A program made the position numbers and the translations under genes. Under the pieces are notes generated by a model. That model was not told where the DNA came from. It saw only the letters and a list, made by a program, of their open reading frames with translations, and searched no databases. A DNA stretch of 64,000 nt from an uncultured Solirubrobacterales bacterium (GTDB lineage: Bacteria > Actinomycetota > Thermoleophilia > Solirubrobacterales > 70-9), in contig CAWCSE010000003.1 in NCBI GenBank assembly GCA_963798165.1, forward strand, positions 178,014 through 242,013, in the 5' to 3' direction. Positions 14,780 through 41,900 of the stretch are shown in pieces (positions within the stretch are counted from its first letter, which is position 1; the number at the start of each line of letters is the position of its first letter).

Positions 14780-16510
14780 TCAGGCGGGAGCGGCCCCCGC
14801 CGTTCGTTCGGCGGCGGACTTCACGAACCGGCGATCACCAGCGATTCGGGAGTCGAGGACGGCGGCGAGCTGCCGCTCGCAGATCGCCGCGGCCAGATGC
14901 TCGTCGGCGGCCCGGAGCCGGCCCGCCTCCCACTCGGAGTCGATCCAGTGCAGGGCCCGGCCGATCACCTCGCTCTGGATCGTGATCGGGTCGATCCCGG
15001 ATTCGACCGCCTCGGCGACCACGACCTCGGCGGATTTCGCGTCGCCGGCAAGCAGGGTCTGGCGGAAGGCCTCGCGGGCCGCCGTCAGCGCCCGCGTCTC
15101 GGGAGTCCGCGTCGACTCGAGCGGGCCCTGGCCGATCAGGCGGGCGGCGTCGGCGGGCGGCCCTGGCCGCGAGAGCATGTAGCCCTGGCCCTGGCGATAG
15201 CCGAGCGCGAACAGGTGGGCGAGCTGACCCTCCGTCTCGATCCCCTCGGCGACGACCTCGATGCCGAGGGCCCGGGCGAGCGGCAGGACGCCGGCGGCGA
15301 GGGCGGCGTCGGCTGACGCCTCCCCGAGGCCGACCACGAAGGAGCGGTCGAGCTTGATCTGGTCGATCGGCAGGGAGCGCAGCTGCGCGATCGAGGTGGA
15401 CGCGGTGCCGAAGTCGTCGAGCGAGATCCGCACGCCGAGAGCGCGCAGCTCGGTGACGCGTTGCAGGTAGGCCTCGGCGGCGCCGCTCAGGGCGGACTCC
15501 GAGATCTCGACGATGACCCGGGAGGGCTCGACGTCGAGCGTCTCGACCAGTTCGCGGATCGACGCGATCAGCGGGTCGGAGGTGAGTTGGCTCGACGAGA
15601 CGTTGATCGCGAGCGACAGCCGGCCCGTCGGATCGGCGGCGGCGATCGGCGGGAAGTCGGCGGCGGCGTGGCCGAGCAGGCGGGTGAGGAGATCGGCGCC
15701 CGAGCCCGTCTCCTCGGCGATCGGCACGAACAGCTCGGGGGAGATGGCCCCGCGCTCGGGGTGCAGCCAGCGCGCCAGCACCTCGACGGAGGCGATCCGG
15801 CCCGAGGCGATGTCGACGATCGGCTGATAGTGGAAGGCGATCTCGTCGGCCTCGAGCGCGGCGGCGAGCTCGCGGCCGATCTCGGCTCGGTAGCGGATCC
15901 GCTCCCTGAGGGCGGTGTCGAAGATCTCGAAGCGGCGGCTGCCGGAACGATTGCGCTCGAGGGCGGACTCGGCGTCGGTGACCAGGGACTCGGCCCGAAC
16001 CGACGGCTCGTCGGCGACCACGAGACCGACCGACACCGTTGCCGCCAGCTCCTCGAAGCCGAGATCGAATGGGTCGTCGAACGCGCCGAGGATCGTCCTC
16101 GCGAGTTCAACCACCTCGGGGCTGCTGGCGTGTCCCCGACTCATCACGACGAACTCGTCACCGCCGGCTCTGGCGACGATGTCGCCCGTCCGGACCGCCG
16201 AGAGGAGCCGCCGACCTGCCGAGAAGAGGAGCTGGTCGCCGACCACGTGGCCGAGGTCGCGGTTGATCCGGCGGAAGCCATCGATGTCGACGAGCAGAAC
16301 CGCGATCGACCCCTCGCCCTCCTCGAGGCCCTCGATCTCGATGCCGAGCCGATCGAGGAACTGGCGGCGGGTCGGCAGAAGGGTCAGGGGATCGGGCTCA
16401 GCGCGATCGGCCACAGGTTGGCCTGCAGGCTGGGGCGCCTGCCCTTGGGTGCTCACGGTGTCCACCCCGCCCCCTTCGCGACGGAGGGAGGGTGTCCTGC
16501 CCGGGCCCAC
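14780..16510 (-). CDS. GGDEF/EAL c-di-GMP signalling protein with a C-terminal B12-binding_2-like helical cap
   Basis: 576 aa. AGGDEFVV in the GGDEF domain; EVLARW...DDFGT..KLDRSF in the EAL domain. The last ~90 aa (LLAGDAKSAEVVVAEAVESGIDPITIQSEVIGRALHWIDSEWEAGRLRAADEHLAAAI) resemble the cobalamin-domain cap. Confidence 0.85.
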   Translation of the reverse strand: MGPGRTPSLRREGGGVDTVSTQGQAPQPAGQPVADRAEPDPLTLLPTRRQFLDRLGIEIEGLEEGEGSIAVLLVDIDGFRRINRDLGHVVGDQLLFSAGRRLLSAVRTGDIVARAGGDEFVVMSRGHASSPEVVELARTILGAFDDPFDLGFEELAATVSVGLVVADEPSVRAESLVTDAESALERNRSGSRRFEIFDTALRERIRYRAEIGRELAAALEADEIAFHYQPIVDIASGRIASVEVLARWLHPERGAISPELFVPIAEETGSGADLLTRLLGHAAADFPPIAAADPTGRLSLAINVSSSQLTSDPLIASIRELVETLDVEPSRVIVEISESALSGAAEAYLQRVTELRALGVRISLDDFGTASTSIAQLRSLPIDQIKLDRSFVVGLGEASADAALAAGVLPLARALGIEVVAEGIETEGQLAHLFALGYRQGQGYMLSRPGPPADAARLIGQGPLESTRTPETRALTAAREAFRQTLLAGDAKSAEVVVAEAVESGIDPITIQSEVIGRALHWIDSEWEAGRLRAADEHLAAAICERQLAAVLDSRIAGDRRFVKSAAERTAGAAPA

Positions 16511-30421: not shown

Positions 30422-30495
<74 letters not shown>

Positions 30496-30646
30496 GCGTG
30501 GGCAGAATACCGCTCTAGCAAGCGGGTTCTGGGAGGTCGGTGATCGGCGGGATGAGCGACCTCATTGGGCAATATTCGGCTCCAGTGACTTTTAGTGACC
30601 AAAAGGGGTTGGAAATGGGCCCGAACAGGGCAGGACCAACGACCTA
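30496..30646. repeat. right arm (tRNA-upstream arm) copy 1 with two AGTGAC repeats
   Basis: GCGTGGGCAGAATACCGCTCTAGCAAGCGGGTTCTGG...TCCAGTGACTTTTAGTGACCAAAAGG...GGGCCCGAAC. Homologous to 34368-34512, 41124-41250 and 41774-41900. Confidence 0.8.
30504..30509 (-). promoter_or_regulatory. -10-like hexamer TATTCT, 8 nt upstream of tRNA-Arg +1
   Basis: Read on the minus strand. The same position holds TAATCT (34376-34381 and the copy near 41132), GAATCT (near 36285) and TATTCT (near 41782) in the four partial copies. Confidence 0.4.
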
Positions 30647-30702
30647 GGTTCTGGCCATAGCTCCTACTCAGCCGGTCCAGGCCAAAGCGAGATACTTAGG
30701 CG

Positions 30703-31096
30703 ATGTCGCAAAAGAACGTGGACGTAGTCCGAGCGGCCTTCGACGGCTGGCTTCGGGGTGATCCGGCAACGCTCGAGCTGATTGACCTGATGTCGTTTAG
30801 TGCCGGGCCCAGGGATGCTGGGTGGCGGCATCTACCGTGGCCACGAGGGCGTGGTCCAGTGGTGGGTCGATTGGCGGCGCGAGTGGACGGACTACGAGAT
30901 CGAGGTCGTACGGCTGGAGGACGTTGGTGATCGAGTATTCACTGCGGAGCGCAGCCAGGCGAAGGGCAAACGCAGTGGAGCCTCCGTGAACTTCGAGACC
31001 TATTCCGTCTGGACCCTGCGGGACGGGAGAATCGTTCGCTGGCAGGGCTATGAGAGTGAGACAGAGGCCCTCGAAGCCGCTGGGCTGTCGGAGTAG
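30703..31096 (+). pseudogene. NTF2/SnoaL-like cassette A, frameshifted
   Basis: N-terminus MSQKNVDVVRAAFDGWLRGDPATLELIDL in one frame. GGIYRGHEGVVQWW...RDGRIVRWQGYESETEALEAAGLSE follows in another frame, with the shift near 30791-30810. Preceded by an L1 leader. Confidence 0.75.
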
Positions 31097-31164
31097 ATCG
31101 GTTCTGGCCGTGAAATAACTCCTACTCAGTCGGTTCAGGGCCAAAGCGAAATACTGCGTGAGCG

Positions 31165-31569
31165 ATGTCGGAGGAGAACGTGGAGCTTGTGGGGCGCATG
31201 ATCGAAGCGTTCAACCAAGGCAGCGTTGACGGCATCCGACCGTTTCTCCACCCCGAGATCGAATGGCACGAGGATCCATCGTTCCCGGAAGCAGGGGTCT
31301 ATCGCGGCGTTGAAGCATTCGAGGAGTACTCGCGGCAGTTTCTCGCAGAGTTCTCTGACATCCGTTACGAGGCTCGGGAGACTGTCGAGATCGGTGACGA
31401 CGTGATTGCCAACATGCAGATTCGGGGACGGGGGAAGACAAGCGGAGCAGCGTTCGAGCTCTCAGCTTGGTGGGCGATCACGTTCCAAGACCATCGGATG
31501 ATCCGTTGCTTTGCTTACCTCGACCGGGATCGGGCTCTGAAAGCCATCGGAGCCGACGGCTCCGAGTAG
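31165..31569 (+). CDS. NTF2/SnoaL-like cassette B (intact, 134 aa)
   Basis: MSEENVELVGRMIEAFNQG...YRGVEAFEEY...RGRGKTSGAAFE...LDRDRALKAIGADGSE. Has its own L1 leader (31097-31164). Confidence 0.75.
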   Translation: MSEENVELVGRMIEAFNQGSVDGIRPFLHPEIEWHEDPSFPEAGVYRGVEAFEEYSRQFLAEFSDIRYEARETVEIGDDVIANMQIRGRGKTSGAAFELSAWWAITFQDHRMIRCFAYLDRDRALKAIGADGSE

Positions 31570-31647
31570 ACCAGTAGGCAGCGTTCTGGCCGTTTCATAG
31601 CTCCTACTTAGCTAGCTCACGGCCAAAAGCGAGATACTGCGTAGACG

Positions 31648-31710
31648 ATGTCGGAGGAGAACGTCAAGACTCTGATTAGCGCCTCGAAGGCCGCGAGTTC
31701 TGCGGCTACG
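31648..31710 (+). pseudogene. NTF2/SnoaL-like cassette C, 5' fragment only
   Basis: An L1 leader followed by ATG TCG GAG GAG AAC GTC AAG (MSEENVK). The family sequence then breaks off and runs into an L2-type leader. Confidence 0.6.
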
Positions 31711-31820
31711 GTCAAGGATGAGTCCCTCCCGTTTATCTGTGAATGGGTGGAGACTGTGGCACTGGCGCCCCCGACGGTCGAGCGAGATACTGGATGGCAA
31801 AGAGCGATACTCAGTGGGCG

Positions 31821-32234
31821 ATGGACTACGAAGAAAAGCTGACGGTCGTTCGCCAGTCCTACGAAGCGTTCAGCCGCAATGATATTGAAGCGCTTCTCTC
31901 TGTCTACGCCCCAGATTGCGAGTGGCTTATGTCGAACTTCGCAGGCTGGCCCGAGAAGCAGCTCTACGTAGGCCGACAGGGTCTCGCCGAGTTCTTCGAA
32001 ACCTGGTTTGAGCCCTGGGAGGACTTCTACGTAGAGATCAGAGAAACGATCGACCTGCCGGGTGATCGCTGCCTTGTGATCGGGGACGCCCATGGGCACG
32101 GCCGACTCAGCGGCGTCGCAGTTGATTTGCCGCCCCTCGCCCAGATCGTCGACTTCCGTGATGGACAGCTTCTGCGTGTCGATAACTATTCGGATGTCGA
32201 AGCGGGCCGAAGAGCCGCCGGGCCGTCGGAGTAG
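31821..32234 (+). CDS. NTF2/SnoaL-like cassette C' (intact, 137 aa)
   Basis: MDYEEKLTVVRQSYEAFSRNDIEALLSVYAPDCEW...YVGRQGLAEFF...GHGRLSGVAV...RDGQLLRVDNYSDVEAGRRAAGPSE. Preceded by an L2 leader. Confidence 0.7.
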   Translation: MDYEEKLTVVRQSYEAFSRNDIEALLSVYAPDCEWLMSNFAGWPEKQLYVGRQGLAEFFETWFEPWEDFYVEIRETIDLPGDRCLVIGDAHGHGRLSGVAVDLPPLAQIVDFRDGQLLRVDNYSDVEAGRRAAGPSE

Positions 32235-32353
32235 CTGCTCGGTCACGCCGCGACCTCGATTACCGGCAAAGCGAGTCCCTCCCGTTTATCGGTGAATGGG
32301 TGGCGGCGCTGGCACTGGCGGTCCCGACGGCCGAGCGAGATACTGGACGGGCG

Positions 32354-32759
32354 ATGTCTCACGAGAACGTGGAACTGGCGGAACGCGCATATGCAGCGTT
32401 TAAGGAAAGAGGATGTGCCGACGGTCATCGAGCTGTTCGATCAAGACATCGGATGGAATGCCTCCGACGTCTTCTTCGACGAGCCGCGGGCCTATCGCGG
32501 CCGAACGGAGTGGGCGCAGACCTTCCTTCGAGACCTGATCGCACTGTTCGAGGACTACCGGGCCGATCCCGAGGAGATCATTGACGCTGGCGACCATCTA
32601 GTGGCCATCGTTCGGGTTGGCGGGCGCGGGAGACACAGCGGCGCGATGGTGACGGCACGTGTTGCACACGTCATGACATTCAGAGATGGCGGAATCGCTA
32701 CCTTCACAGAGTTCAAGGATGTCCCTGAGGGCCGCGAAACCGCCGGGCTGACGGAGTAG
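32354..32759 (+). pseudogene. NTF2/SnoaL-like cassette D, frameshifted near 32400
   Basis: MSHENVELAERAYAAFKE in one frame, then (K)EDVPTVIELFDQDIGWNAS...GGRGRHSGAMV...FRDGGIATFTEFKDVPEGRETAGLTE in the next. The shift is at the GGAAAGAGG run. An internal ATG could still give a truncated product. Confidence 0.65.
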
Positions 32760-32762
32760 GCG

Positions 32763-33179
32763 ATGTCGGGTGAGAACGTCGAGATCGTGCGCCGAGCCAT
32801 CGAGGCGTTCAACCGCGCCGGTACCGCCGGGGCGGTTAGCTCTGGCCTCTACGCGGATGACGTTGAATGGGATGGCACACGAAGCGGGGTCCCCGGAGCC
32901 GGCGTCGAGCGAGGCATCGATGACGTAGTTGCCTTCTTCGAAGAGAACTGGTTCGCCGCGTTTCCGTTCGAAGATTGGGAGATCCACATTGAGGAGGCGA
33001 TTGATAACGGAGATAAGGTGGTCTTCACTTCCCATCAACGAGCGCGAGGAGCATCCGAGCGGGGCGGAGAGTCCCTCGCCCTTGGAAGCATCTTCACGCT
33101 CCGCAACGGACAGATCGTGCGGATGCAGGTCTTCCAGCGCCCGGAAGATGCCCGCAAAGCCGCCGGGCCGACGGAGTAG
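32763..33179 (+). CDS. NTF2/SnoaL-like cassette E (intact, 138 aa)
   Basis: MSGENVEIVRRAIEAFNRAG...FPFEDWEIHIEEAIDNGDKVVFTSHQRARGASERGG...LRNGQIVRMQVFQRPEDARKAAGPTE. Chained 3 nt after the stop of D. Confidence 0.75.
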   Translation: MSGENVEIVRRAIEAFNRAGTAGAVSSGLYADDVEWDGTRSGVPGAGVERGIDDVVAFFEENWFAAFPFEDWEIHIEEAIDNGDKVVFTSHQRARGASERGGESLALGSIFTLRNGQIVRMQVFQRPEDARKAAGPTE

Positions 33180-33182
33180 TCG

Positions 33183-33591
33183 ATGTCGGAGGAGAACGTG
33201 GAGATCGTGCGCTGGCTTCACGAGAAGGGACACGCAAGGCGAACAGTCGAAGTGCCTGGTGTCGAGGATCGGATTGCCTCCGACTATCGCTTCCACCCGC
33301 GATCCGACTTTCCGGGTCGTTCCACCTACCGCCTTGACGAATTGGTCAATTTCTGGGCCGATCTCGACGCGACCTTTATTGACTACAGCCTGATTCCCCA
33401 AAGCTACGAATCGATTGGTCCTACCCACGTCTTGGTCACGCTGCGACAGACGACGCTCGGCCCGGGGAAGCGACCAGTTGCTCACCGAACTCATCTACAT
33501 GCTCTGGGAACTGGTCGAAGGAAGGGCCAAGGAGACATGGACGTCCAGCGAGAGGGAGCAAGCCCTCGAAGCTGCCGGGCTGTCGGAGTAG
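33183..33591 (+). pseudogene. NTF2/SnoaL-like cassette F, frameshifted
   Basis: MSEENVEIVRWLHEKG...THVLVTLRQT in frame 1. The family C-terminus LTELIYMLWELVEGRAKETWTSSEREQALEAAGLSE lies in another frame. The length is 409 nt, not a multiple of 3. Confidence 0.7.
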
Positions 33592-33594
33592 GTG

Positions 33595-34002
33595 ATGTCG
33601 CAAAAGAACATGGAGGCATTCAAGCGATCGGTTGAGGCGGGCAGCCGCCACGACTTTGACGCGATGCTGGAGGAGCTTGACCCGGCGGTGGAATGGCATC
33701 CGGCGGTAGGCGTGGCGTTGGCAGGTGAAGCGACGGTGCTTCGGGGACGGGAGGAGGTGCGGAAGTGGTTTCAGGACCTGTTCGGAGCGTTCGAGGATCT
33801 TCGCTTCGAAGCCTCGGAGTTCCGGGACCTCGGAGATGAACTGCTCGCGTTCGGTCGGGTGCAGGCCCATGGCACCGCAAGCGGTGTCGAGATCGACTCG
33901 GCATTGGCGTGGCTGGTCCGAGCAAAGAACGGGAAGGCGATTTGGGTCCGGAGCTACATGGATCCGAAGGAAGCTCTCGAAGCGGCCGGACTTTCGGAGT
34001 AA
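33595..34002 (+). CDS. NTF2/SnoaL-like cassette G (intact, terminal cassette of module 1)
   Basis: MSQKNMEAFKRSVEAGSRHDFDAMLEELDPAVEWHP...LRGREEVRKWF...AHGTASGVEI...KNGKAIWVRSYMDPKEALEAAGLSE. It ends in TAA, the only non-TAG stop in the array. Confidence 0.75.
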   Translation: MSQKNMEAFKRSVEAGSRHDFDAMLEELDPAVEWHPAVGVALAGEATVLRGREEVRKWFQDLFGAFEDLRFEASEFRDLGDELLAFGRVQAHGTASGVEIDSALAWLVRAKNGKAIWVRSYMDPKEALEAAGLSE

Positions 34003-34189
34003 CTCCGCCATCAGACCAGGGCGTGAAGCCGGGCAGCAGGAGATGCCTGCCTAGGAACTGGTCCGTAACAGTGATCAAGAGATCCGGTGCCGCACCATGC
34101 CGTCGTCCACGGTGACCGCCCGTTGCAGGGTCAGGTAAGGATGATCAGGGCGATCCCGCAGGTACTGCACGGGAACGCCAGAACTGAGC

Positions 34190-34512
<323 letters not shown>

Positions 34513-34572
34513 GGTTCTGGCCATTTCACCTACTTAGTCGGTTCAGGGCCTAAGCGAGATACTGCACAGACG

Positions 34573-34951
34573 ATGTCGCAGGAGAACGTGGACCTCATCA
34601 AACAGGGCTACGAGGTACTGGAAGGCCACTGGTGAGGTCAACGCGCATCCTGACCTGGTCTGGGATGTGACCAGACCGGCTGGCCAGGCCAGCAGATCTA
34701 TCCGGACCTGACGGAGCTAACGGTTCAACGCAGAGTGGGCGGATGCTTGGGATGACTGGGAGGTCGAGCTCGAGGACTGCCTTGACTTCGGGGAGCGAGT
34801 AGTAGCATCGTCAATCAGCGGGGACGTTCGAAGGTAACGGGATTCCGTGGACATGCACTTCGCTCAGGTGTGGTGCTCGCGACGGACTGGCGTTCAGGAT
34901 GAAGATGTACGCGAGCGGAGGAGGCCTCGAAGCCGCGGGCTGTCGGAGTAG
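34573..34951 (+). pseudogene. NTF2/SnoaL-like cassette N, heavily decayed
   Basis: An L1 leader, then MSQENVDLIKQGYEVLEGHW-stop. Family remnants (WDDWEVELEDCLDFGERVV..., ...EAAGCRSR) sit in shifting frames. Ends at the ..GGCTGTCGGAGTAG junction. Confidence 0.6.
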
Positions 34952-34990
34952 GCGCGCAGAGGGCGTTCCGGCCTTTGTGCGCGAGATAGG

Positions 34991-35400
34991 GTGCGCGACA
35001 TAGAGGGAAGAGACGAAGAAATCATCGCCAGCCTGCGCCGCACCTACGAGGCGACAACCGAGGCGACTTCGACTCCGCTGTCGAGATTGCTGCACCCTGA
35101 CGTTGAACTGGTTACAACCGGTGGCTTCACGAGCCTCGCGGGACCGACAAGCTCCGTGAGTGGTTGGAGCCAGAGACGATGGAGGACATAACGATGGAGC
35201 CGTAGTATTTCGAGGTTGCGGGCAACAACGTGCTGGTACGCCAGAGAAGTCGAGGCCGTGGAGTGACGAGCGGAGCTAAAGTCGAGATGGACTTCTGGGT
35301 GGGTTACACGATTGACGACGAGGGTCGCGTGACTAGGATGGTCGCTTATAACCACGATCAGGAAGTCAGAGCTCGAACGGATACCGGGCTATCGGAGTAG
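34991..35400 (+). pseudogene. NTF2/SnoaL-like cassette O, decayed (frameshifts and stops)
   Basis: EEIIASLRRTYEA...LLHPDVELVTTGG and ...NNVLVRQRSRGRGVTSGAKVEMDFWVGYTIDDEGRVTRMVAYNHDQEVRARTDTGLSE lie in different frames. 410 nt. Confidence 0.55.
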
Positions 35401-35403
35401 GCG

Positions 35404-35748
35404 ATGTCGGAAGAGAACGTGGAGATCGTTCGTCGCTGCTATGAGTTCTTGGAGAACCGCGACGAGTCGTTGATCGTTGAACTGATTGATCCCGACGTCG
35501 TCTACGACCTCTCGAGGAATGTATTCAACCCCGACGTCTATGTAGGTCACGAAGGGCTCAGGAGCTTGGTCGAACAGGTCGATGCGATGTGGGAGGGCTT
35601 TCGCATTGAGCCAGAAGAGTTCTCCGATGGTGGCGAATATGTCGTCTGCGCAGCTCGGATGACTGGACGGGGTAGAAAGAGAGGAGTCCCCACGGAGATG
35701 CGCCTCTTCCAGGTCTGGCAGCTTCGCGACGGCAAGGTACTGCGATAG
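35404..35748 (+). CDS. NTF2/SnoaL-like cassette P, truncated by an in-frame TAG 18 codons before the family stop
   Basis: MSEENVEIVRRCYEFLENRD...YVGHEGLRSLVE...TGRGRKRGVPTEMRLFQVWQLRDGKVLR-TAG. The same frame continues TGGYREHAEALEEAGLSE-TAG, ending at 35805. Confidence 0.65.
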   Translation: MSEENVEIVRRCYEFLENRDESLIVELIDPDVVYDLSRNVFNPDVYVGHEGLRSLVEQVDAMWEGFRIEPEEFSDGGEYVVCAARMTGRGRKRGVPTEMRLFQVWQLRDGKVLR

Positions 35749-35887
35749 ACGGGCGGCTACCGAGAGCATGCCGAAGCCCTCGAAGAGGCCGGGCTGTCGG
35801 AGTAGGGCGCTCACTCCCGGCATCAGACCGGGACGCCGAAGCCGGGGCAGCAGGGGATGCCCTACAGAAATGGGTCCATAGCCGTGG

Positions 35888-36010
35888 TCAAGAGATCCGT
35901 TGCTGCACCATGCCCTCGTCCACCGTGACCGCCCGTTGCAGGATCAGGTAAATGATGAACAGGGCGACGACCGCCGATGCCGCGATCAGCACCTTTTTTC
36001 CGATGCTCAT
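35888..36010 (-). CDS. 40-aa hydrophobic peptide in the module-end region (hypothetical)
   Basis: MSIGKKVLIAASAVVALFIIYLILQRAVTVDEGMVQQRIS, with GGAGAGG 1 nt before the ATG. The homologous stretch in module 1 (34075-34190) carries an internal deletion that removes the start. Confidence 0.35.
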   Translation of the reverse strand: MSIGKKVLIAASAVVALFIIYLILQRAVTVDEGMVQQRIS

Positions 36011-36099
36011 GCCTCTCCTTCGATCGAGTTCTACGACCGCGATCGTATTCTCGGCTCCACCTTCGCGCAGGTATTGCACGGGATCACCAGAACGTTGCG

Positions 36100-36310
<211 letters not shown>

Positions 36311-36522
36311 CTAGCGTAGCCGCCGGAGCCAAAATCGCGGGGCTTGGCCGGGAGGCGGGCTCGATTGTGCCCATTGCTGCCCATTCAACGCCCAACTGAA
36401 CTCTCATGCAACAGCACCATCTCGTCATGCGCTGACGTCGGAAACCCGGTTGTGCGTTGACTGCGCGATGACTTTGTCAATAGGATCGCGCAGTCCAAAT
36501 CGGGAATCCAAACGGGAGACTT

Positions 36523-37413
36523 GTGAGCAACTTCAATCGACGCCGTTCGCGCAATTCAGAAACGAAGCGGCGGAGGTTGAGCAAGCCGAGCCCGGCGATG
36601 GCCGTGGCCCTTGCTGCCCTGTTCTTCGCGATGACCGGAATGGGCATCGCCGCCAAGTCCATGATCACGGGAAAGCAGATCAAGAATGGGACGGTGACCT
36701 CGAAGGATCTCGCCAAGGGCGCGGTCAAGGCGAAGAACCTCGCCGACAGCGCGGTCACGCCCGCCGCCCTCGCAGACAGTGCCGTCACGGCCGACAAGCT
36801 CGCGGGCAGCTCAATCACCGCTCGTGCCATCGACGGCTCCTTGCCGGCGAGATCCGCAGGGCGAGTTATCAATCAGGGCTCGGTCCCCAAAATCTGTCCT
36901 GGCGGCATCATCACCTTCGGCGCAGCGTGCCCTGCCATACCCGAGCGGGCGAACATGCGCTACGCGGAAGTACTGAACTTCGACAGCTGGTACGCCCTTC
37001 AAGGATTACCCTGCAGCGGCAGCGGCGGCGACCTGCCGCTGACTTCTATCTCGCAGTCTCCCGATTTGGCGCCCTACCCGGGCTTGCCAACGACTGGTGA
37101 CCGATTCACAATCGAGAAGACGGGGAACTACACGGTCACTGTCAACGCCACCTGGGACGCGGGTCCCGGCGATTACCGCGCAATCCAAGCAGACAAGCAC
37201 CTTGGCAGCGGCCCCAACCAAGGCGAGAGTGTCAAAATCGGATACGTGATCGATGCACCCGCGCCTGGTCTGGAGACCATGCAGTCGGGGACGTTCGACT
37301 TCACGGCCAACGCGGGGGACACCATCCACTTCAGTGCCTCGCAGTGCGGCCCCAATATGGTCAAGCTCCAGGAGCTGAGGGCTAACGTCTTGCCGGAGCA
37401 GGCCGTTCAGTAG
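36523..37413 (+). CDS. membrane-anchored hypothetical protein with short tandem xLAxSAVT-type repeats
   Basis: 296 aa. GTG start with GGGAGA 4 nt upstream. Basic N-terminus, one TM (MAVALAALFFAMTGMGIAA), then ITGKQIKNGTVTSKDLAKGAVKAKNLADSAVTPAALADSAVTADKLAGSSIT. I recognise no catalytic motif. Confidence 0.5.
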   Translation: MSNFNRRRSRNSETKRRRLSKPSPAMAVALAALFFAMTGMGIAAKSMITGKQIKNGTVTSKDLAKGAVKAKNLADSAVTPAALADSAVTADKLAGSSITARAIDGSLPARSAGRVINQGSVPKICPGGIITFGAACPAIPERANMRYAEVLNFDSWYALQGLPCSGSGGDLPLTSISQSPDLAPYPGLPTTGDRFTIEKTGNYTVTVNATWDAGPGDYRAIQADKHLGSGPNQGESVKIGYVIDAPAPGLETMQSGTFDFTANAGDTIHFSASQCGPNMVKLQELRANVLPEQAVQ

Positions 37414-37528
37414 CCGGGGTTGCCGGGGACGCTGGTTCTCGGCGAAGCCTCATCGCAGCGGTAACCTGCCGCGGGTCGGTTCGCCGTACCCGGGCATCGG
37501 CGCTAGTGGCCAATGGAGGGCCGAAATG

Positions 37529-37676
37529 GCGGGTGCAGGCCCATGGCACCGCAAGCGGTGTCGAGATCGACTCGGCATTGGCGTGGCTGGTCCGAGCAAA
37601 GAACGGAAAGGCGATTTGGGTCCGGAGCTACATGGATCCGAGGGAAGCCTTCGAAGCCGCCGGGCTGTCGGAGTAG
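37529..37676 (+). pseudogene. 3' fragment of an NTF2/SnoaL-like cassette (G'), near-identical to the 3' end of cassette G
   Basis: CGGGTGCAGGCCCATGGCACCGCAAGCGGTGTCGAGATCGACTCGGCATTGGCGTGGCTGGTCCGAGCAAAGAACGG matches about 33856-33935 with 1 mismatch by eye. It is fused upstream to a right-arm fragment (37503-37528). Confidence 0.75.
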
Positions 37677-37679
37677 GCG

Positions 37680-38096
37680 ATGTCGGAGGAGAACATCGAG
37701 ATTGTCCGGCGAGTCATTACGGCGCTCAACCGAGGCGGACCCGCCGCAGTAGTGAACACCGGCCTCCTCGCGGACGAAGTCGTGTTCGACGGCACGCAAA
37801 GCGGCATCCCTGGAGTCAGCGTCTTCCGAGGCATCGATGCCGTCCGGGATTTCTTCGAGGAGGACTGGTTCGATGTGTTTCCGTTTGAGGACTGGGAGAT
37901 TCGCATGGAGGAGCCGATCGACAACGGAGAGCAGGTGGTCTTCACTTCTCACCAACGAGGGCGGGGAGCGTCCAGCAGGGCGGGAACGGTGCTCACGGTC
38001 GGCAACATCTTCACTGTCCGCAACGGAAAGCTCGTGCGCATGCAGATCTTCCAGCGACCCGACGAAGCCCTCGAAGCCGCCGGGCTGTGGGAGTAG
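37680..38096 (+). CDS. NTF2/SnoaL-like cassette H (intact, 138 aa; closest paralog of E)
   Basis: MSEENIEIVRRVITALNRGG...FPFEDWEIRMEEPIDNGEQVVFTSHQRGRGASSRAG...VRNGKLVRMQIFQRPDEALEAAGLWE. Confidence 0.75.
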   Translation: MSEENIEIVRRVITALNRGGPAAVVNTGLLADEVVFDGTQSGIPGVSVFRGIDAVRDFFEEDWFDVFPFEDWEIRMEEPIDNGEQVVFTSHQRGRGASSRAGTVLTVGNIFTVRNGKLVRMQIFQRPDEALEAAGLWE

Positions 38097-38099
38097 AAG

Positions 38100-38501
38100 A
38101 TGTCGGAGGAGAACGTAAAGATCGTTCGCCGATCCTTCGACACCTTCAATCAACGCGACAAGGTTGCGTGGATGGCCGACGCCGATCTGGAATGCGAGGT
38201 GTTTCCCCCTGCCGAGTGGCCCGAGAACACGCCGATTCGAGGAGCCGCGGCCTGCTGGGAGTTCTACCTCGACAACGCAAAGGCCTTCGAGGAGGGCTCG
38301 TTTGAGCTTCGGGAGGTTCGTGACGTCGGTCACGGCCGGGTGATCGCGAACCAGCATCGGGAGATGCGGGGCAGGAAGAGTGGAGCAGCCGTGGTCTATG
38401 ACTTCTGGGCCGTGATCACGCTCCGGCATGGGAAGCACGTCCGCTGGGATTGGTTCAGCACCCGATCCGCGGCCCTGGAGGCCGCCGGGCTGTCGGAGTA
38501 G
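38100..38501 (+). CDS. NTF2/SnoaL-like cassette I (intact, 133 aa)
   Basis: MSEENVKIVRRSFDTFNQRD...EMRGRKSGAAVVYDFWAVITLRHGKHVRWDWFSTRSAALEAAGLSE. Followed by a 73-nt fragment of the module-end region. Confidence 0.75.
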   Translation: MSEENVKIVRRSFDTFNQRDKVAWMADADLECEVFPPAEWPENTPIRGAAACWEFYLDNAKAFEEGSFELREVRDVGHGRVIANQHREMRGRKSGAAVVYDFWAVITLRHGKHVRWDWFSTRSAALEAAGLSE

Positions 38502-38631
38502 GCGCTCACTCCAGCCATCAGACCGGGACGTGAAGTCGGGGCAGCAGGGGATGCCCTGCCGAAATGGGTCCATAACCGTGGTGGCCCTGGCACTGGCGCC
38601 CCCGACGGCCGAGCGCGATACTGGACGGGCG

Positions 38632-39033
38632 ATGTCGCAGGAGAACGTGGAGATCGTGCGCGCCTACATCGACGCGTACAACGGGGGCGATCTCGAACCC
38701 GCGCTCGGCCTTCTCGCTGACGACTTCGAGTACGACGGCTCGCGCGCGCTTGGTCCGGACAGCAGTCGGGCCTATGACCGCGACGGGTTCCGTGACTTCC
38801 TTGTCGACTTCGCATCGAACTGGGAGTCCCCGGTGCGGATCGAACCGCACGAGTTCATCGACGCCGGAGCGCGCGTGGTCGTCCCCTGGACCTTCCATGC
38901 GACCGGACGCGACGGGCTCGACCTAGACGCGCGGGTGACGATGGTGTTCACGGTCCGCGACGAGGCCATCGCGGGGATCTGCATGCACCAGGATCGCAGC
39001 GGAGCCCTCGAAGCCGCCGGGCTATCGGAGTAG
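38632..39033 (+). CDS. NTF2/SnoaL-like cassette J (intact, 133 aa)
   Basis: ATG 38632. MSQENVEIVRAYIDAYNGGDLEPALGLLADDFEY...ATGRDGLDLDARVTMVFTVRDEAIAGICMHQDRSGALEAAGLSE. Preceded by a partial L2 leader. Confidence 0.75.
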   Translation: MSQENVEIVRAYIDAYNGGDLEPALGLLADDFEYDGSRALGPDSSRAYDRDGFRDFLVDFASNWESPVRIEPHEFIDAGARVVVPWTFHATGRDGLDLDARVTMVFTVRDEAIAGICMHQDRSGALEAAGLSE

Positions 39034-39036
39034 GCG

Positions 39037-39459
39037 ATGTCGCAGGAGAACGTCGACTTTGTGACCGGTCTCTTCTCGGGGGCACTCGAGATGGAGAAGG
39101 ACGATCTCCTCGCCGCGCTTCCGGAGATGACTCGGCAAGCATGTGACCCGGAGATCGAATGGATCGAGGACCCGCAGCGTGCAGACTCGCGTACCTACCG
39201 CGGGCACGAGGGCGTCCTCGAGTCGTGGACCCAGTGGCTCGAGGGATTCGAGGAATATGGGGTCGAGCTCGAGGCGATCCGCGATTGCGGCGACAAGGTC
39301 TTGGTCACGATGCGGGAGGAGGGGCGAGGAGGGGCGAGTGGCGCATCCGTGTCAGCGCGTGTCTACGCGGTCCTGACCTTCCGAGACGCCAAGGTCCTGC
39401 GTTACCAGGAGTTCTACGACGAGCGAATGGCTGGCGAGGCCGCCGGCCGCTTGGAGTAG
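39037..39459 (+). CDS. NTF2/SnoaL-like cassette K (intact, 140 aa)
   Basis: MSQENVDFVTGLFSG...YRGHEGVLESWTQWLEGFEEYGVELEAIRDCGDKVLV...GRGGASGASV...FRDAKVLRYQEFYDERMAGEAAGRLE. Confidence 0.7.
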   Translation: MSQENVDFVTGLFSGALEMEKDDLLAALPEMTRQACDPEIEWIEDPQRADSRTYRGHEGVLESWTQWLEGFEEYGVELEAIRDCGDKVLVTMREEGRGGASGASVSARVYAVLTFRDAKVLRYQEFYDERMAGEAAGRLE

Positions 39460-39462
39460 CCG

Positions 39463-39855
39463 ATGTCGAAGGAGAACATTGAGACTGTGCGACGCCTGCT
39501 CGAGGTCACCAGTGCTGAGGACGCCTCAGGTGCCGTGCCCTTGCTCGATCCGGACCTCAAGTGGATTCCGTTACGTGCCGCAACGGAAGGGGCATATCAC
39601 GGCATCGATGGCTATCTGAAGTTCGTGGCTGACACGGACGAGAGCTTCGAGATCTTCGAGCCTCACCTCGAGCTTCGCGACGCTGGCGACCGAGTGCTGG
39701 CCTGGGGCACGATTCACCTGCGGGGCGGCGGCAGCGGGGTGGAGATTGACGTTCCAGTTGGGGGCATCTTCGATCTTCGCGACGGAAGAATCATCCGCTG
39801 GCAGGACTTCGGTTCTAGGGAAGCAGCCCTCAAAGCCGCCGGGCTGTCGGAGTAG
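39463..39855 (+). CDS. NTF2/SnoaL-like cassette L (intact, 130 aa)
   Basis: MSKENIETVRRLLEV...YHGIDGYLKFV...LRGGGSGVEIDVPVGGIFDLRDGRIIRWQDFGSREAALKAAGLSE. Confidence 0.75.
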   Translation: MSKENIETVRRLLEVTSAEDASGAVPLLDPDLKWIPLRAATEGAYHGIDGYLKFVADTDESFEIFEPHLELRDAGDRVLAWGTIHLRGGGSGVEIDVPVGGIFDLRDGRIIRWQDFGSREAALKAAGLSE

Positions 39856-39975
39856 ATGAGCAGTCACAGGGCGACCTCGATCACCGGCAGAGCGAGACCT
39901 CCGGCTTATCCGCAGATAGGAGGGCGGGCCGTGGTAGTGAAGGCCCAGAGGGCTAAGCGAGATACTGCGTGAGCG

Positions 39976-40389
39976 ATGTCCGACCAGGAAGATCTCGCCA
40001 TCCTCCGGGAGGCATACCTCGCCTGGAATGACCTTGGGGTCGGTGGGGACGGCGTCGCGCGGTTCTTTCACCCGGACGTCGAGTGGATCAACCCGCCGGA
40101 AATGCCCGGCGGGGGAACCCGGATCGGCAAAGACGCCGTCTTGGCTTTCCTGAGGGAGTGGGAAGGGACGATGGGGATCATGAACGTGACCTTCAACGTC
40201 GAGCAGATCATTCCGGCCAACGGCGAGTACCTCGTGGTCTCGGTCGTCACCGCAACGAGCGGGCATGGGGTGGCCATTCCTCCTCAGAACGTGTTTCACT
40301 TGTTGCGAATCGAAGACCGCCGGGTGGGCAGAGTGCGGTTCTTTTTCGATCGAGCGGCGGCCCTCGAAGCCGCCGGGTTGTCGGATTAG
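39976..40389 (+). CDS. NTF2/SnoaL-like cassette M (intact, 137 aa)
   Basis: MSDQEDLAILREAYLAWNDLG...RIGKDAVLAFLREWEG...TSGHGVAIPPQNVFHLLRIEDRRVGRVRFFFDRAAALEAAGLSD. Has its own hybrid L2/L1 leader. Confidence 0.7.
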   Translation: MSDQEDLAILREAYLAWNDLGVGGDGVARFFHPDVEWINPPEMPGGGTRIGKDAVLAFLREWEGTMGIMNVTFNVEQIIPANGEYLVVSVVTATSGHGVAIPPQNVFHLLRIEDRRVGRVRFFFDRAAALEAAGLSD

Positions 40390-40464
40390 GCCAATAGACA
40401 GCGTTCTGGCCGCCGCGTAGCCCCACCCAGCCGGTTCAGGCCAAAGCGAGATACTGCACAGACG

Positions 40465-40851
40465 ATGTCGAAGGAGAACGTGGAAATCGCTCGCCGCGCC
40501 TACGCGGCCTTCAACCGGCGCGACTTCGACGCTGCCCTGGAGTCTTTTGATCCCGGTGTCGAGTGGCACCAGATAACGCAGTTCCCCGATCGAAGCGTCT
40601 ATCGCGGACTTGACGACATGAGAGACCGCTTCTGGAACCGACAGCTGGTCGAGCAGTTCGGGGATTTCAGGATCGACGTTGAGGAGTTCGTTGACGCTGG
40701 TGATCACGTCGTGATGATCGGGCACATCGTCGCCCACGGAAGCGGCAGTGGGGTGCCGATCCGTCAGCGGGTCGTCAACATCCTGGAGTTGCGCGACGGG
40801 AAGACCATTCGCGCATACGACGTTGCTGGGCCGAGCGAGAGCGAGAGTTAG
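40465..40851 (+). CDS. NTF2/SnoaL-like cassette Q (intact, 128 aa; divergent C-terminus)
   Basis: MSKENVEIARRAYAAFNRRDFDAALESFDPGVEWHQ...YRGLDDMRDRF...AHGSGSGVPIRQRVVNILELRDGKTIRAYDVAGPSESES. L1 leader at 40390-40464. Confidence 0.75.
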   Translation: MSKENVEIARRAYAAFNRRDFDAALESFDPGVEWHQITQFPDRSVYRGLDDMRDRFWNRQLVEQFGDFRIDVEEFVDAGDHVVMIGHIVAHGSGSGVPIRQRVVNILELRDGKTIRAYDVAGPSESES

Positions 40852-40954
40852 GCCGAAGTAACCGACGTCCATCCTGGGATCTCGATCCGCTCGTCGGCGT
40901 CAGCCACCACGCCGTTGTCAGCGAGGCGTCGGCGATCATCCTGACTACTTCCCT

Positions 40955-41250
<296 letters not shown>

Positions 41251-41290
41251 TGGCGCGAGTCAGGAGCCGATGCAGCTGGCCGGCCGGGTC

Positions 41291-41569
41291 CTAGGCCCTG
41301 CGTCGTGCCCGAAGCTCTCGCTGGCGTTGCCGCTCCGCTTTGAGCCGAGTCGTCTTCTGGCCTTCCCATACGTGGAGGGCAACGACGGCTAGCACGATGA
41401 TGACCGCGAAAACGCCAAGCGGGCGCGGGAGCAACGTCATCGCGCCTATTGCGAGCGGTAGTCCGACGAACAGGCTGATAAGCAGATCGCGGCCGGGACC
41501 GCCGTACTGCTTGAAAACTGCTCGCCGGATCGGAGTGCTGCGCTCGGCCATCGGGAATGCAATCGACAA
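41291..41569 (-). CDS. small membrane protein (2 TM, basic C-terminal tail), hypothetical
   Basis: 92 aa. LLISLFVGLPLAIGAMTLL and GVFAVIIVLAVVALHVW, followed by KAERQRQRELRARRRA. It is the only ORF of module 4. Confidence 0.4.
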   Translation of the reverse strand: MSIAFPMAERSTPIRRAVFKQYGGPGRDLLISLFVGLPLAIGAMTLLPRPLGVFAVIIVLAVVALHVWEGQKTTRLKAERQRQRELRARRRA

Positions 41570-41608
41570 AACGTCCCGCTGGCCTTAGAGCCGCATTCAA
41601 GAACTTCG

Positions 41609-41634
41609 CCAGGGCGCAGAGAAAGCGCCCCTGG
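41609..41634. terminator. GC-rich hairpin CCAGGGCGC-AGAGAAA-GCGCCCCTGG (terminator-like, no clear U-tract)
   Basis: 9-bp stem with one bulge, read directly. It lies about 140 nt downstream (minus sense) of tRNA-half copy 5 and its promoter. Confidence 0.25.
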
Positions 41635-41639
41635 TTAGG

Positions 41640-41900
41640 AGATCCGGTGCAGAATCCCGGAACGGGTATCTGAAATCGGGCTAACCTCGCCGCCTGGCGG
41701 GGTGGCCAGATGGAGTCTCGGTCTACACCGCTGCCGTCAGGGGAGTCGCTCTATCCAGCTGAGCTATCGGGGCCTGGGAGCAGAATACCGCTCTGGTAAG
41801 CCGATTCCGAGAGGTCGCCGATCGGTGGGATGAGCCATCTCATCGAGCAAATCTCGGCTCCAGTGACTCTTAGTGACCAAGGGAGGGCGGAAAGAGGCCC
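41640..41900. repeat. junction 5: diverged left arm + shortened tRNA-Arg 5' part (41741-41773) + right arm
   Basis: GGGAGTCGCTCTATCCAGCTGAGCTATCGGGGC equals tRNA nt 1-33. The anticodon-loop part is replaced by GCCGTCA. The left arm keeps GAGATCCGGTGC, GCCAGATGG and ACACCGCT islands. The right arm has TCCAGTGACTCTTAGTGACCAAGGGAGG. Confidence 0.7.

Follow-up and report, generated by a model that had tools for sequence, protein, structure and literature searches.

Nucleotide-level conservation at both coding ends of tandem NTF2-like gene cassettes coincides with the zones of cassette reassortment in Thermoleophilia

Integron arrays (IntI, attI, attC) are tandem series of co-oriented, mostly promoterless single-gene cassettes that carry a conserved element at each junction, are expressed from upstream and are reassorted one cassette at a time between genomes. 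Here we describe arrays that resemble them in these respects, with expression from upstream predicted, found in a 64,000-nucleotide stretch of contig CAWCSE010000003.1 (the window; positions 178,014 to 242,013, assembly GCA_963798165.1) from an uncultured Solirubrobacterales bacterium and in 83 related loci. Their cassettes encode small proteins of one SnoaL_2/NTF2-like family, and both ends of each gene are conserved at the nucleotide level. They depart from integrons in several ways. No integrase gene stands beside the arrays, nor is there an imperfect palindrome or hairpin of the attC type; the conserved element is part of the coding sequence, a single protein family accounts for every cassette, the breakpoints are spread over the conserved ends, and the hosts are Thermoleophilia. 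Judged as integrons, they show individually mobile, co-oriented cassettes and lack both an intI gene beside the array and an attC hairpin.

Other described systems share further features with the locus. In silent-cassette conversion (Borrelia vls, Neisseria pilS, Anaplasma msp2) and in the C-terminal swapping of polymorphic toxins, variable segments lie between short nucleotide-conserved coding stretches that serve as the recombination substrate. The cassettes described here have the same arrangement of variable coding segments between short conserved coding stretches, but each is a complete gene bearing a start, a stop and a ribosome-binding site of its own, no single expression site exists, and the products are small cytoplasmic-type proteins rather than surface antigens or toxins. 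Coupled operon junctions (ATGA or TGATG overlaps, termination-reinitiation) likewise place a stop near the next start, with the Shine-Dalgarno sequence in the last codons of the upstream gene. They differ in that the gap here is fixed at 3 nt with a conserved GCG spacer and a fixed TAG stop, the pattern extends across hundreds of non-orthologous gene pairs, and the gene end is kept where no gene follows. Homogeneous polyimmunity loci are tandem arrays of paralogous immunity genes (Zhang et al. 2012, PMC3482391); they too are made up of distant paralogues from one family of small domains, presumably carried on a single message, vary in content between related genomes and include fused multi-domain forms, and NTF2-fold immunity families are known. 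In contrast to those loci, we found no toxin gene, secretion system or XerC/D-type recombinase near the arrays, the closest solved structures are small-molecule enzymes rather than immunity proteins, and nucleotide-level conserved ends are not part of the polyimmunity description. Finally, tycheposon-type islands grow at tRNA genes by tandem accretion, with newcomers pushing older elements inward (Hackl et al., bioRxiv 10.1101/2020.12.28.424599). The present arrays also lie beside tRNA genes, with partial tRNA copies flanking the elements and degenerate remnants as older integrations; however, their units are small (0.65–5 kb), lack an integrase and carry mainly one gene family, and their mobility is predicted.

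In the window (Table 1), the TAG-NNN-ATG arrangement noticed in a first-pass annotation of the sequence is present at all eight cassette junctions, in the form ...GCCGGGCTGTCGGAG-TAG-NNN-ATGTCGSAGGAGAAC. The 23-nt core of the junction, TGTCGGAGTAGNNNATGTCGGAG, has seven matches in the window at no more than three mismatches, compared with 0.00 expected from shuffled sequences; the K-L junction is more diverged. A duplicated octamer, TGTCGGAG...TGTCGGAG, had been described for the junctions in general; it is exact (zero mismatches) at G'-H only, and the other junctions carry one to three mismatches. The GGAG upstream of the next start is present as described, but its position needed correction: it ends at −7, so that 6 nt (TAG plus the spacer) separate it from the ATG. 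The claim of near-uniform TAG stops held with a change in the count, since 15 of the 17 profile matches in the window stop in TAG; G stops in TAA, and the TGA assigned to F belongs to a frameshifted reading, the family-type end of F also being a TAG. A ninth junction, at 34949–34954, is decayed and consists of TAG GCG followed by CGCAG, with the ATGT missing.

Each cassette is built as GCG followed by ATG...TAG, and about the first 20 and the last 30 bases are kept almost letter for letter. The 5' module reads GGCG-ATG-TCG-SAG-GAG-AAC-GTG-GAG and the 3' module reads GCC-CTC-GAA-GCC-GCC-GGG-CTG-TCG-GAG-TAG; all copies of the protein start with MSxENVEIVRR and end with EALEAAGLSE. We aligned 290 genes to the family profile and compared, for each column, the probability of the same codon given the same amino acid with the expectation from codon usage. 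This probability was 0.755 over the first 10 codons (expected, 0.51) and 0.78 over the last 10 codons (expected, 0.40), whereas gene interiors gave 0.45 against an expected 0.43. The glutamate at −7 is encoded by GAA in 232 genes and by GAG in 8, although interiors use GAG for 78% of glutamates; the glycine at −4 is GGG in 79% of genes, compared with 26% in interiors, and the serine at codon 2 is TCG in 96%, compared with 28%. As the first-pass annotation had proposed, conservation of the ends extends to the nucleotides themselves, and it far exceeds what codon usage and protein constraint together would produce.

The same annotation had treated stop, ribosome-binding site and next start as one fused module of about 45 nt. 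This part was not borne out. Position by position, the 3' block shows the same conservation in 163 genes with a cassette 3 nt downstream as in 174 genes without one, and the sole difference is the GGAG before the stop, found in 91% of junction genes and 84% of the others. The 5' block is unchanged behind a promoter-like head or behind the end of an upstream cassette. The first and last genes of arrays also bear both modules, as do 16 isolated genes with no family member within 2 kb. Because the 3' and 5' blocks are equally conserved outside junctions, including in isolated genes, the junction is two autonomous end modules side by side, the 3' module of one cassette abutting the 5' module of the next. 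The annotation had also reasoned that equal conservation in unlinked single-copy members would leave nothing but protein constraint and codon bias to explain. Single-copy members are indeed equally conserved, but that conclusion does not follow, because the fixed codons of the modules include rare ones. Identity between modules is as high across loci as it is inside one (within versus between, 0.746 versus 0.741 and 0.827 versus 0.817), and local homogenisation was rejected on this ground.

We extended the census to related loci, three taken from metagenome contigs (L001–L003) and 80 from one genome per species (L004–L083). Almost all are from Thermoleophilia, namely Solirubrobacterales and Thermoleophilaceae genomes assembled from metagenomes. 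The family profile gave 506 matches in 84 sources, 369 of them full length, and 178 of the 324 adjacent gene pairs lie exactly 3 nt apart, with GCG as the spacer in 154 of these 178; gaps of 2 or 4 nt, which break the frame, occur in 15 cases. TAG is the stop codon of 335 of the 369 full-length genes (91%), compared with ∼45% of neighboring genes, and of 148 of the 161 genes that no cassette follows. The exact 25-mer of the junction was found in at least 120 soil contigs from short-read assemblies; because of this recurrence, the junction is not an assembly artifact. The repertoire is very diverse: clustering at 70% identity sorts 364 full-length cassettes into 314 groups. Carriage by phages or plasmids was rejected, as the 25-mer had no matches among viral contigs and the family consensus matched no plasmid in PLSDB. 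A literature search found nothing on the cassette family, its terminal peptides or arrays of this kind.

Some members depart from the standard layout. In a subfamily present in L026, L068 and L083, CAA stands in place of the TAG and translation would continue for seven more codons (QDAHADS) as far as a TGA; in every case a head with the next ATG comes 23 nt later. Two loci contain "empty" cassettes in which the 5' module is joined almost directly to the 3' module (GCGATGTCGCAGGAG against GGCTGCGGGAGTAG), at ∼7695–7735 of L066 (after L066+11) and in L054 (after L054+1); their structure is consistent with deletion between the short ..TCG-SAG-GAG and ..TCG-GAG repeats. Two database proteins, P0020 (..GLSE-SP-MSRENVEI..) and P0058 (..GLSE-QA-MSQED..), are natural two-domain fusions in which a sense codon replaces the junction stop; given the in-frame spacing of the junction, such fusions are one mutation away.

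The modules are where cassettes are reassorted. When cassettes are 75–98% identical in protein between genomes, their neighbors on both sides are almost always only 0–40% identical, which is the family background. Cassette J and positions 1732–2137 of L001 share 93% nucleotide identity in an alignment that runs exactly from −4 to the stop codon, and their contexts are reversed: in the window, J has a head upstream and a 3-nt junction downstream, whereas its counterpart has a cassette 3 nt upstream and a 124-nt spacer downstream. Cassette C is 96% identical in protein to L003+6, whose neighbors differ, and cassette order differs between the window and L003, its closest relative. The decayed cassette at 34573–34951 is 90% identical in nucleotides to positions 14984–15395 of L003.

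We mapped breakpoints in pairs of cassettes with bodies at least 85% identical, expressing the mismatch rate relative to that of random pairs. The ratio was 0.1–0.15 in the body. At the 5' end it climbed between +30 and +6 to reach 0.6–0.9 upstream, and at the 3' end it stood at 0.65–0.7 between −18 and −1, with values of at least 1 beginning at the stop codon. Because the ratio is low in the body and rises through the modules, the exchanged unit is the gene body, sometimes a run of cassettes, with crossovers inside the conserved modules. The same pattern is seen inside the window: G and G' differ at one position in ∼112 nt and then at 7–8 positions over the last 36 nt, including TAA versus TAG, in agreement with the first-pass comparison of these two copies. 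A fixed crossover point was rejected, since what remains of the next cassette's 5' module after a last cassette varies from 10 to 32 nt and has scattered end points. The earlier interpretation is partly supported by these data: conservation is at the DNA or RNA level and is tied to cassette shuffling, but it belongs to both cassette ends.

One shared cassette crosses a class boundary on paper. L026 and L068 carry a cassette 92% identical in protein, and their bins are assigned to Solirubrobacterales and to Ilumatobacteraceae (class Acidimicrobiia), respectively; this reflects either transfer between classes or a binning error.

Before first and isolated genes, a conserved 19-nt non-coding head, GCGAGATACTGCGCGGGCG-ATG, replaces the end of an upstream gene, and every spacer of 17–264 nt ends in such a GATACT head. 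GATACT ends 9 nt 5' of the ATG in every head, no head contains GGAG, and GCG precedes the ATG here too. The window has eight matches to the head motif, all directly before cassettes, compared with 0.16 expected. Because the head is similar to the −10 region that precedes the tRNA copies (agagcgGTATTCT, with GTATTCT, lying ∼8 nt upstream of the tRNA 5' end), it is probably a promoter whose transcript would start within ∼3 nt of the ATG and be leaderless or nearly so. An E. coli-type promoter was rejected for the heads, as a consensus scan flagged none. At junctions, the stop and start 3 nt apart (all 8 in the window; the 178 pairs of the census) and the GGAG 6 nt from the ATG (91% of junction genes) have the form of a coupled pair. 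Translational coupling, which the first-pass annotation had raised, is plausible, although its junction-specific signal is small and consists of the difference in GGAG frequency given above.

All nine intact cassettes of the window match SnoaL_2 (Pfam PF12680) at 32.6–63.7 bits against a gathering cut-off of 27, and the copies are only 25–34% identical in protein to cassette J. An AlphaFold2 model of J is an NTF2-type alpha+beta cone (mean pLDDT, 90) in which the N-terminal module forms the start of helix 1 and the C-terminal module a short last helix and tail. Foldseek placed this model closest to TerC, limonene epoxide hydrolase, ketosteroid isomerase and SnoaL-like cyclases (TM ∼0.7–0.8). 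The median dN/dS of the bodies is 0.27; the bodies are under purifying but relaxed selection, and because of this value and the confident predicted structure the cassettes look functional. PADLOC gave no match for the cassettes, and a defense-system assignment was rejected on that account; NCBIfam gave only sub-threshold hits to "ketosteroid isomerase-related" proteins. No toxin or secretion domains were present among the commonest neighbor families.

Up to four units in tandem make up the island in the window. An exact copy of the tRNA-Arg(CCT) 5' half, together with ∼100–160 nt of tRNA-upstream sequence, bounds each unit, and the break in the tRNA comes directly after the anticodon loop. No integrase was found in these units, which are filled by cassettes. 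Across the loci, 13 have a tRNA gene within 500 nt of the array. Exact 30–45-nt copies of a tRNA half number four in the window (tRNA-Arg 5' half), five in L066 and four in L074 (tRNA-Ala 3' half), and single copies occur in L026, L027, L061, L077 and L079; the 5' half is the duplicated part at tRNA-Arg and at one tRNA-Met site, and conserved flanking arms go with the copies. The units have the direct repeats of a partial tRNA at both ends that mark tRNA-targeting elements, but not an integrase gene of their own. Because the arrays are bracketed by exact tRNA-half copies, they carry the signature of small integrative units that would have piled up in tandem at tRNA genes and are predicted to be mobile.

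Two smaller features accompany the tRNA-half copies. Direct repeats of the form AGTGAC-N4/5-AGTGACC(AA) lie on both sides of them (∼30550–30570, 34205–34225, 34455–34475, 36115–36135 and 41180–41200) and could be candidate binding sites for a recombinase or accessory protein. The anticodon arm of the tRNA-Arg gene (30458–30470, minus strand) reads ..CCTAAGGAGTAGGCC.. and has a 9-mer, GGAGTAGGC, in common with the cassette junction; the duplicated tRNA half ends right at this 9-mer, and the sharing is probably a coincidence.

We consider that the end modules act both as expression signals and as short homology arms for swapping gene bodies, a reading to which we give somewhat less than an even chance (about 0.45). 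A cassette start is preceded either by a promoter-like head or by the end of the previous cassette. Transcription driven by a head would yield a leaderless or near-leaderless message, and at an internal cassette the preceding TCG-GAG would supply the GGAG for a coupled translational restart. Homologous recombination or gene conversion between the 20–30-nt modules would swap bodies or runs of cassettes between arrays and genomes and would copy the pre-existing TAG-GCG-ATG junction unchanged, which would account for a uniform spacing and spacer without a dedicated recombinase. As cassettes keep changing position and host, their ends would have to work in every context, and the modules would stay uniform across species. 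The arrays themselves would travel on the small integrase-less units bounded by tRNA halves, stacking in tandem at tRNA genes.

Several points weigh against this reading. Arms of 20–30 nt are near the lower limit for RecA-type recombination. The modules have no local structure, which looks like direct purifying selection on specific letters that exchange does not obviously supply, and because module identity is equal within and between loci there may be a trans-acting reader of the sequence, either a regulator or a distant recombinase. The use of TAG rather than TGA is explained by neither coupling nor homology. The breakpoint maps draw on few pairs (18 and 24), which lack full independence. 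The heads fail a two-hexamer promoter scan, whose consensus is of the E. coli type, and the start of transcription, a polycistronic message and coupling are each predicted from the DNA sequence.

The strongest rival holds that the modules are mainly a shared RNA-level control element, read by a regulator (protein or small RNA), a processing enzyme or the ribosome, with recombination as a by-product of their similarity. In its favor, letters uniform across species and without local structure are what direct purifying selection would leave, isolated genes too show conserved synonymous sites, the head is specific to the family, and three GGAG motifs surround the start, with GGAG slightly commoner at true junctions. 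However, RNAalifold on 160 junctions gave no consensus structure, and single-sequence RNA and DNA folds of the junction had z-scores near 0, no better than shuffles; a conserved RNA or DNA hairpin at the junction was rejected on these results. Rfam returned only tRNA even at E-values up to 1, no candidate regulator was found, and the 3' module is equally conserved where nothing follows. We regard this explanation as unlikely, though a real contender.

Less probable still is a site-specific recombinase, encoded at another place in the genome, that would act on the modules; this would be an integron-like system with its sites inside the ends of coding sequences. Single cassettes reassorted with both neighbors changed, a precise and invariant junction, the same letters retained in all genomes, and tRNA-half-bounded units that themselves imply an integrase in trans would all suit such an enzyme. 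Against it, the junction has neither dyad symmetry nor a hairpin, relatedness decays gradually across the modules with no step, and the 5'-module remnants after last cassettes stop at scattered points. No recombinase recurs among 147 array-adjacent open reading frames (ORFs), and none is present among 20 others (the window flanks and 10 further ORFs); a recombinase encoded away from the arrays would escape this search of adjoining ORFs, which also weighs against the homology-arm reading.

Concerted evolution alone, in which local gene conversion among tandem copies would keep the ends alike without selection on the letters, is improbable. It would fit the G/G' pair, which differs sharply only in the last 36 nt like a conversion tract, and the placement of crossover zones inside the modules, but ends from the same locus are no closer to each other than to those from loci of different species, isolated genes retain the consensus, and rare codons are fixed in all lineages. 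We give very little weight to readthrough of an in-frame TAG, by which an array would yield chains of several NTF2 domains. The spacing does leave the next gene in frame, TAG predominates, and the natural fusions P0020 and P0058 exist; yet TAG is an ordinary stop here, as its use in neighboring genes indicates, it is equally frequent where no cassette follows, the 2- and 4-nt gaps break the frame, and GCG also precedes the ATG behind heads, so the spacing stems from the modules themselves. Ordinary similarity, that is, protein constraint on two terminal peptides (conserved as protein and forming the start of helix 1 and the short C-terminal helix of the model) plus GC-biased codon usage, is refuted by same-codon probabilities of 0.76–0.78 at the ends compared with 0.40–0.51 expected and 0.45 in interiors, by the fixation of non-preferred GAA and GGG and of the minority codon TCG, and by conservation of the non-coding GCG spacer and of the 19-nt non-coding head.

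The coordinates of the features are listed in Table 1. The island spans ∼30.5–41.8 kb (∼11 kb; 30422–41807), adjoins tRNA-Arg(CCT) and has a GC content of 58–65%, compared with 69–70% in its flanks. It holds ∼18 genes, pseudogenes and fragments of the family, all on the plus strand, as are all 17 profile matches. Cassettes A, D and F each regain full length by one 1-nt insertion or deletion; many of the related genomes are long-read assemblies, and these frameshifts could be sequencing or assembly errors or mark real pseudogenes. Downstream of the internal TAG of cassette P, 19 codons remain in frame and end in the consensus 3' module, and family members usually have W, Y or M at that position; the TAG is likely a recent nonsense mutation.

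Table 1. Features of the cassette island, in window coordinates
Feature	Position	Strand	Remarks
tRNA-Arg(CCT), intact, island border	30422..30495	-	ARAGORN; Rfam tRNA 71.6 bits
Promoter-like head GCGAGATACTTAGGCG, immediately 5' of cassette A	30687..30702	+	same motif family as other heads
Cassette A, SnoaL_2 family	30703..31096	+	frame broken by 1 extra base within 30788-30823; family-type 3' end, TAG
Cassette B	31165..31569	+	head 31146-31164; 3' module degenerate
Cassette 5' fragment	31648..31719	+	head 31629-31647; cut off by long-spacer-module copy
Cassette C	31821..32234	+	head 31802-31820
Cassette D	32353..32759	+	head 32335-32352; 1 base missing within 32380-32403
D-E junction	32730..32783	+	27-nt 3' module, TAG (32757-32759), GCG, 21-nt 5' module
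Cassette E, 138 aa, intact	32763..33179	+	Pfam SnoaL_2 4.7e-13
E-F junction	33150..33203	+	TAG TCG ATG; TAG at 33177-33179
Cassette F	33183..33591	+	1 extra base at 33461-33463 in CCCGGGG run
F-G junction	33562..33615	+	TAG GTG ATG; TAG at 33589-33591
Cassette G, final one of first unit	33595..34002	+	non-consensus 3' module, TAA stop
tRNA-Arg 5'-half copy 2, first-unit boundary	34328..34367	-	40 nt, 100% identical
Decayed cassette	34573..34951	+	head 34554-34572; end GGAGTAG, then decayed junction without ATGT
Cassette O, decayed	34955..35400	+	recognizable at profile positions 77-132 only
O-P junction	35371..35424	+	TAG GCG ATG; TAG at 35398-35400
Cassette P	35404..35805	+	in-frame TAG at 35746-35748
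tRNA-Arg 5'-half copy 3	36238..36277	-	
G', 3' fragment of G-like cassette	37529..37676	+	consensus 3' module
G'-H junction	37647..37700	+	sole exact match to 23-nt core; TAG at 37674-37676
Cassette H, 138 aa	37680..38096	+	
H-I junction	38067..38120	+	TAG AAG ATG; TAG at 38094-38096
Cassette I, 133 aa	38100..38501	+	followed by 130-nt spacer ending in head
Promoter-like head before J, GCGCGATACTGGACGGGCG	38613..38631	+	
Cassette J, 133 aa	38632..39033	+	
J-K junction	39004..39057	+	TAG at 39031-39033
Cassette K, 140 aa	39037..39459	+	
K-L junction, most diverged	39430..39483	+	TAG CCG ATG; TAG at 39457-39459
Cassette L, 130 aa	39463..39855	+	
Cassette M, 137 aa	39976..40389	+	head 39957-39975
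Cassette N, 128 aa	40465..40851	+	head 40446-40464; 3' end not family type
tRNA-Arg 5'-half copy 4	41084..41123	-	
tRNA-Arg 5'-half copy 5, island outer edge	41741..41773	-	33 nt

Three further elements lie between the cassettes. A conserved stretch of ∼85 nt (..CCATCAGACCGGGACG.GAAG.CGGGGCAGCAGGGGATGCCCTGCCGAAATGGGTCCATAACCGTGG) is common to the long spacers of ∼120–130 nt and to the segments after last cassettes (34003–34090, 35806–35890 and 38502–38590 in the window, and also spacers of L001 and L003); the predicted folding of the long spacer modules is not significant. A small minus-strand ORF, MSIGKKVLIAASAVVALFIIYLILQRAVTVDEGMVQQRIS, at 35888–36013 after cassette P has a truncated copy at 34075–34160 (minus strand) after G and may be the relic of a flanking gene that was transported with the unit. 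A 296-amino acid ORF at 36523–37413 (plus strand) combines a hydrophobic N-terminal segment with repeats of a SAVT..A.LA motif, and searches of Pfam, NCBIfam and PADLOC gave no match to it.

The modules present a clean natural case of strong selection on synonymous sites, and the conserved 25-mer could serve directly for sampling the soil cassette pool by PCR or read mining. Taking the observations together, we tentatively propose that Thermoleophilia may share a lineage-wide pool of hundreds of distinct NTF2-like bodies that could be plugged into any array through arms in the first ∼7 and last ∼9 codons, with the arrays moved between tRNA genes on integrase-less miniature units; it would be an actinobacterial counterpart of the integron cassette pool either without a dedicated cassette recombinase or with an undiscovered trans-acting one. 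To our knowledge, integrons have not been reported in this phylum. If the proposal is correct, a major but little-studied group of soil bacteria would gain a gene-cassette system in which, unlike in integrons, the exchange signals are written into coding ends that double as translation signals. Such a system would let these organisms maintain a very large repertoire of small ligand-binding or enzyme-like proteins that reassorts rapidly.

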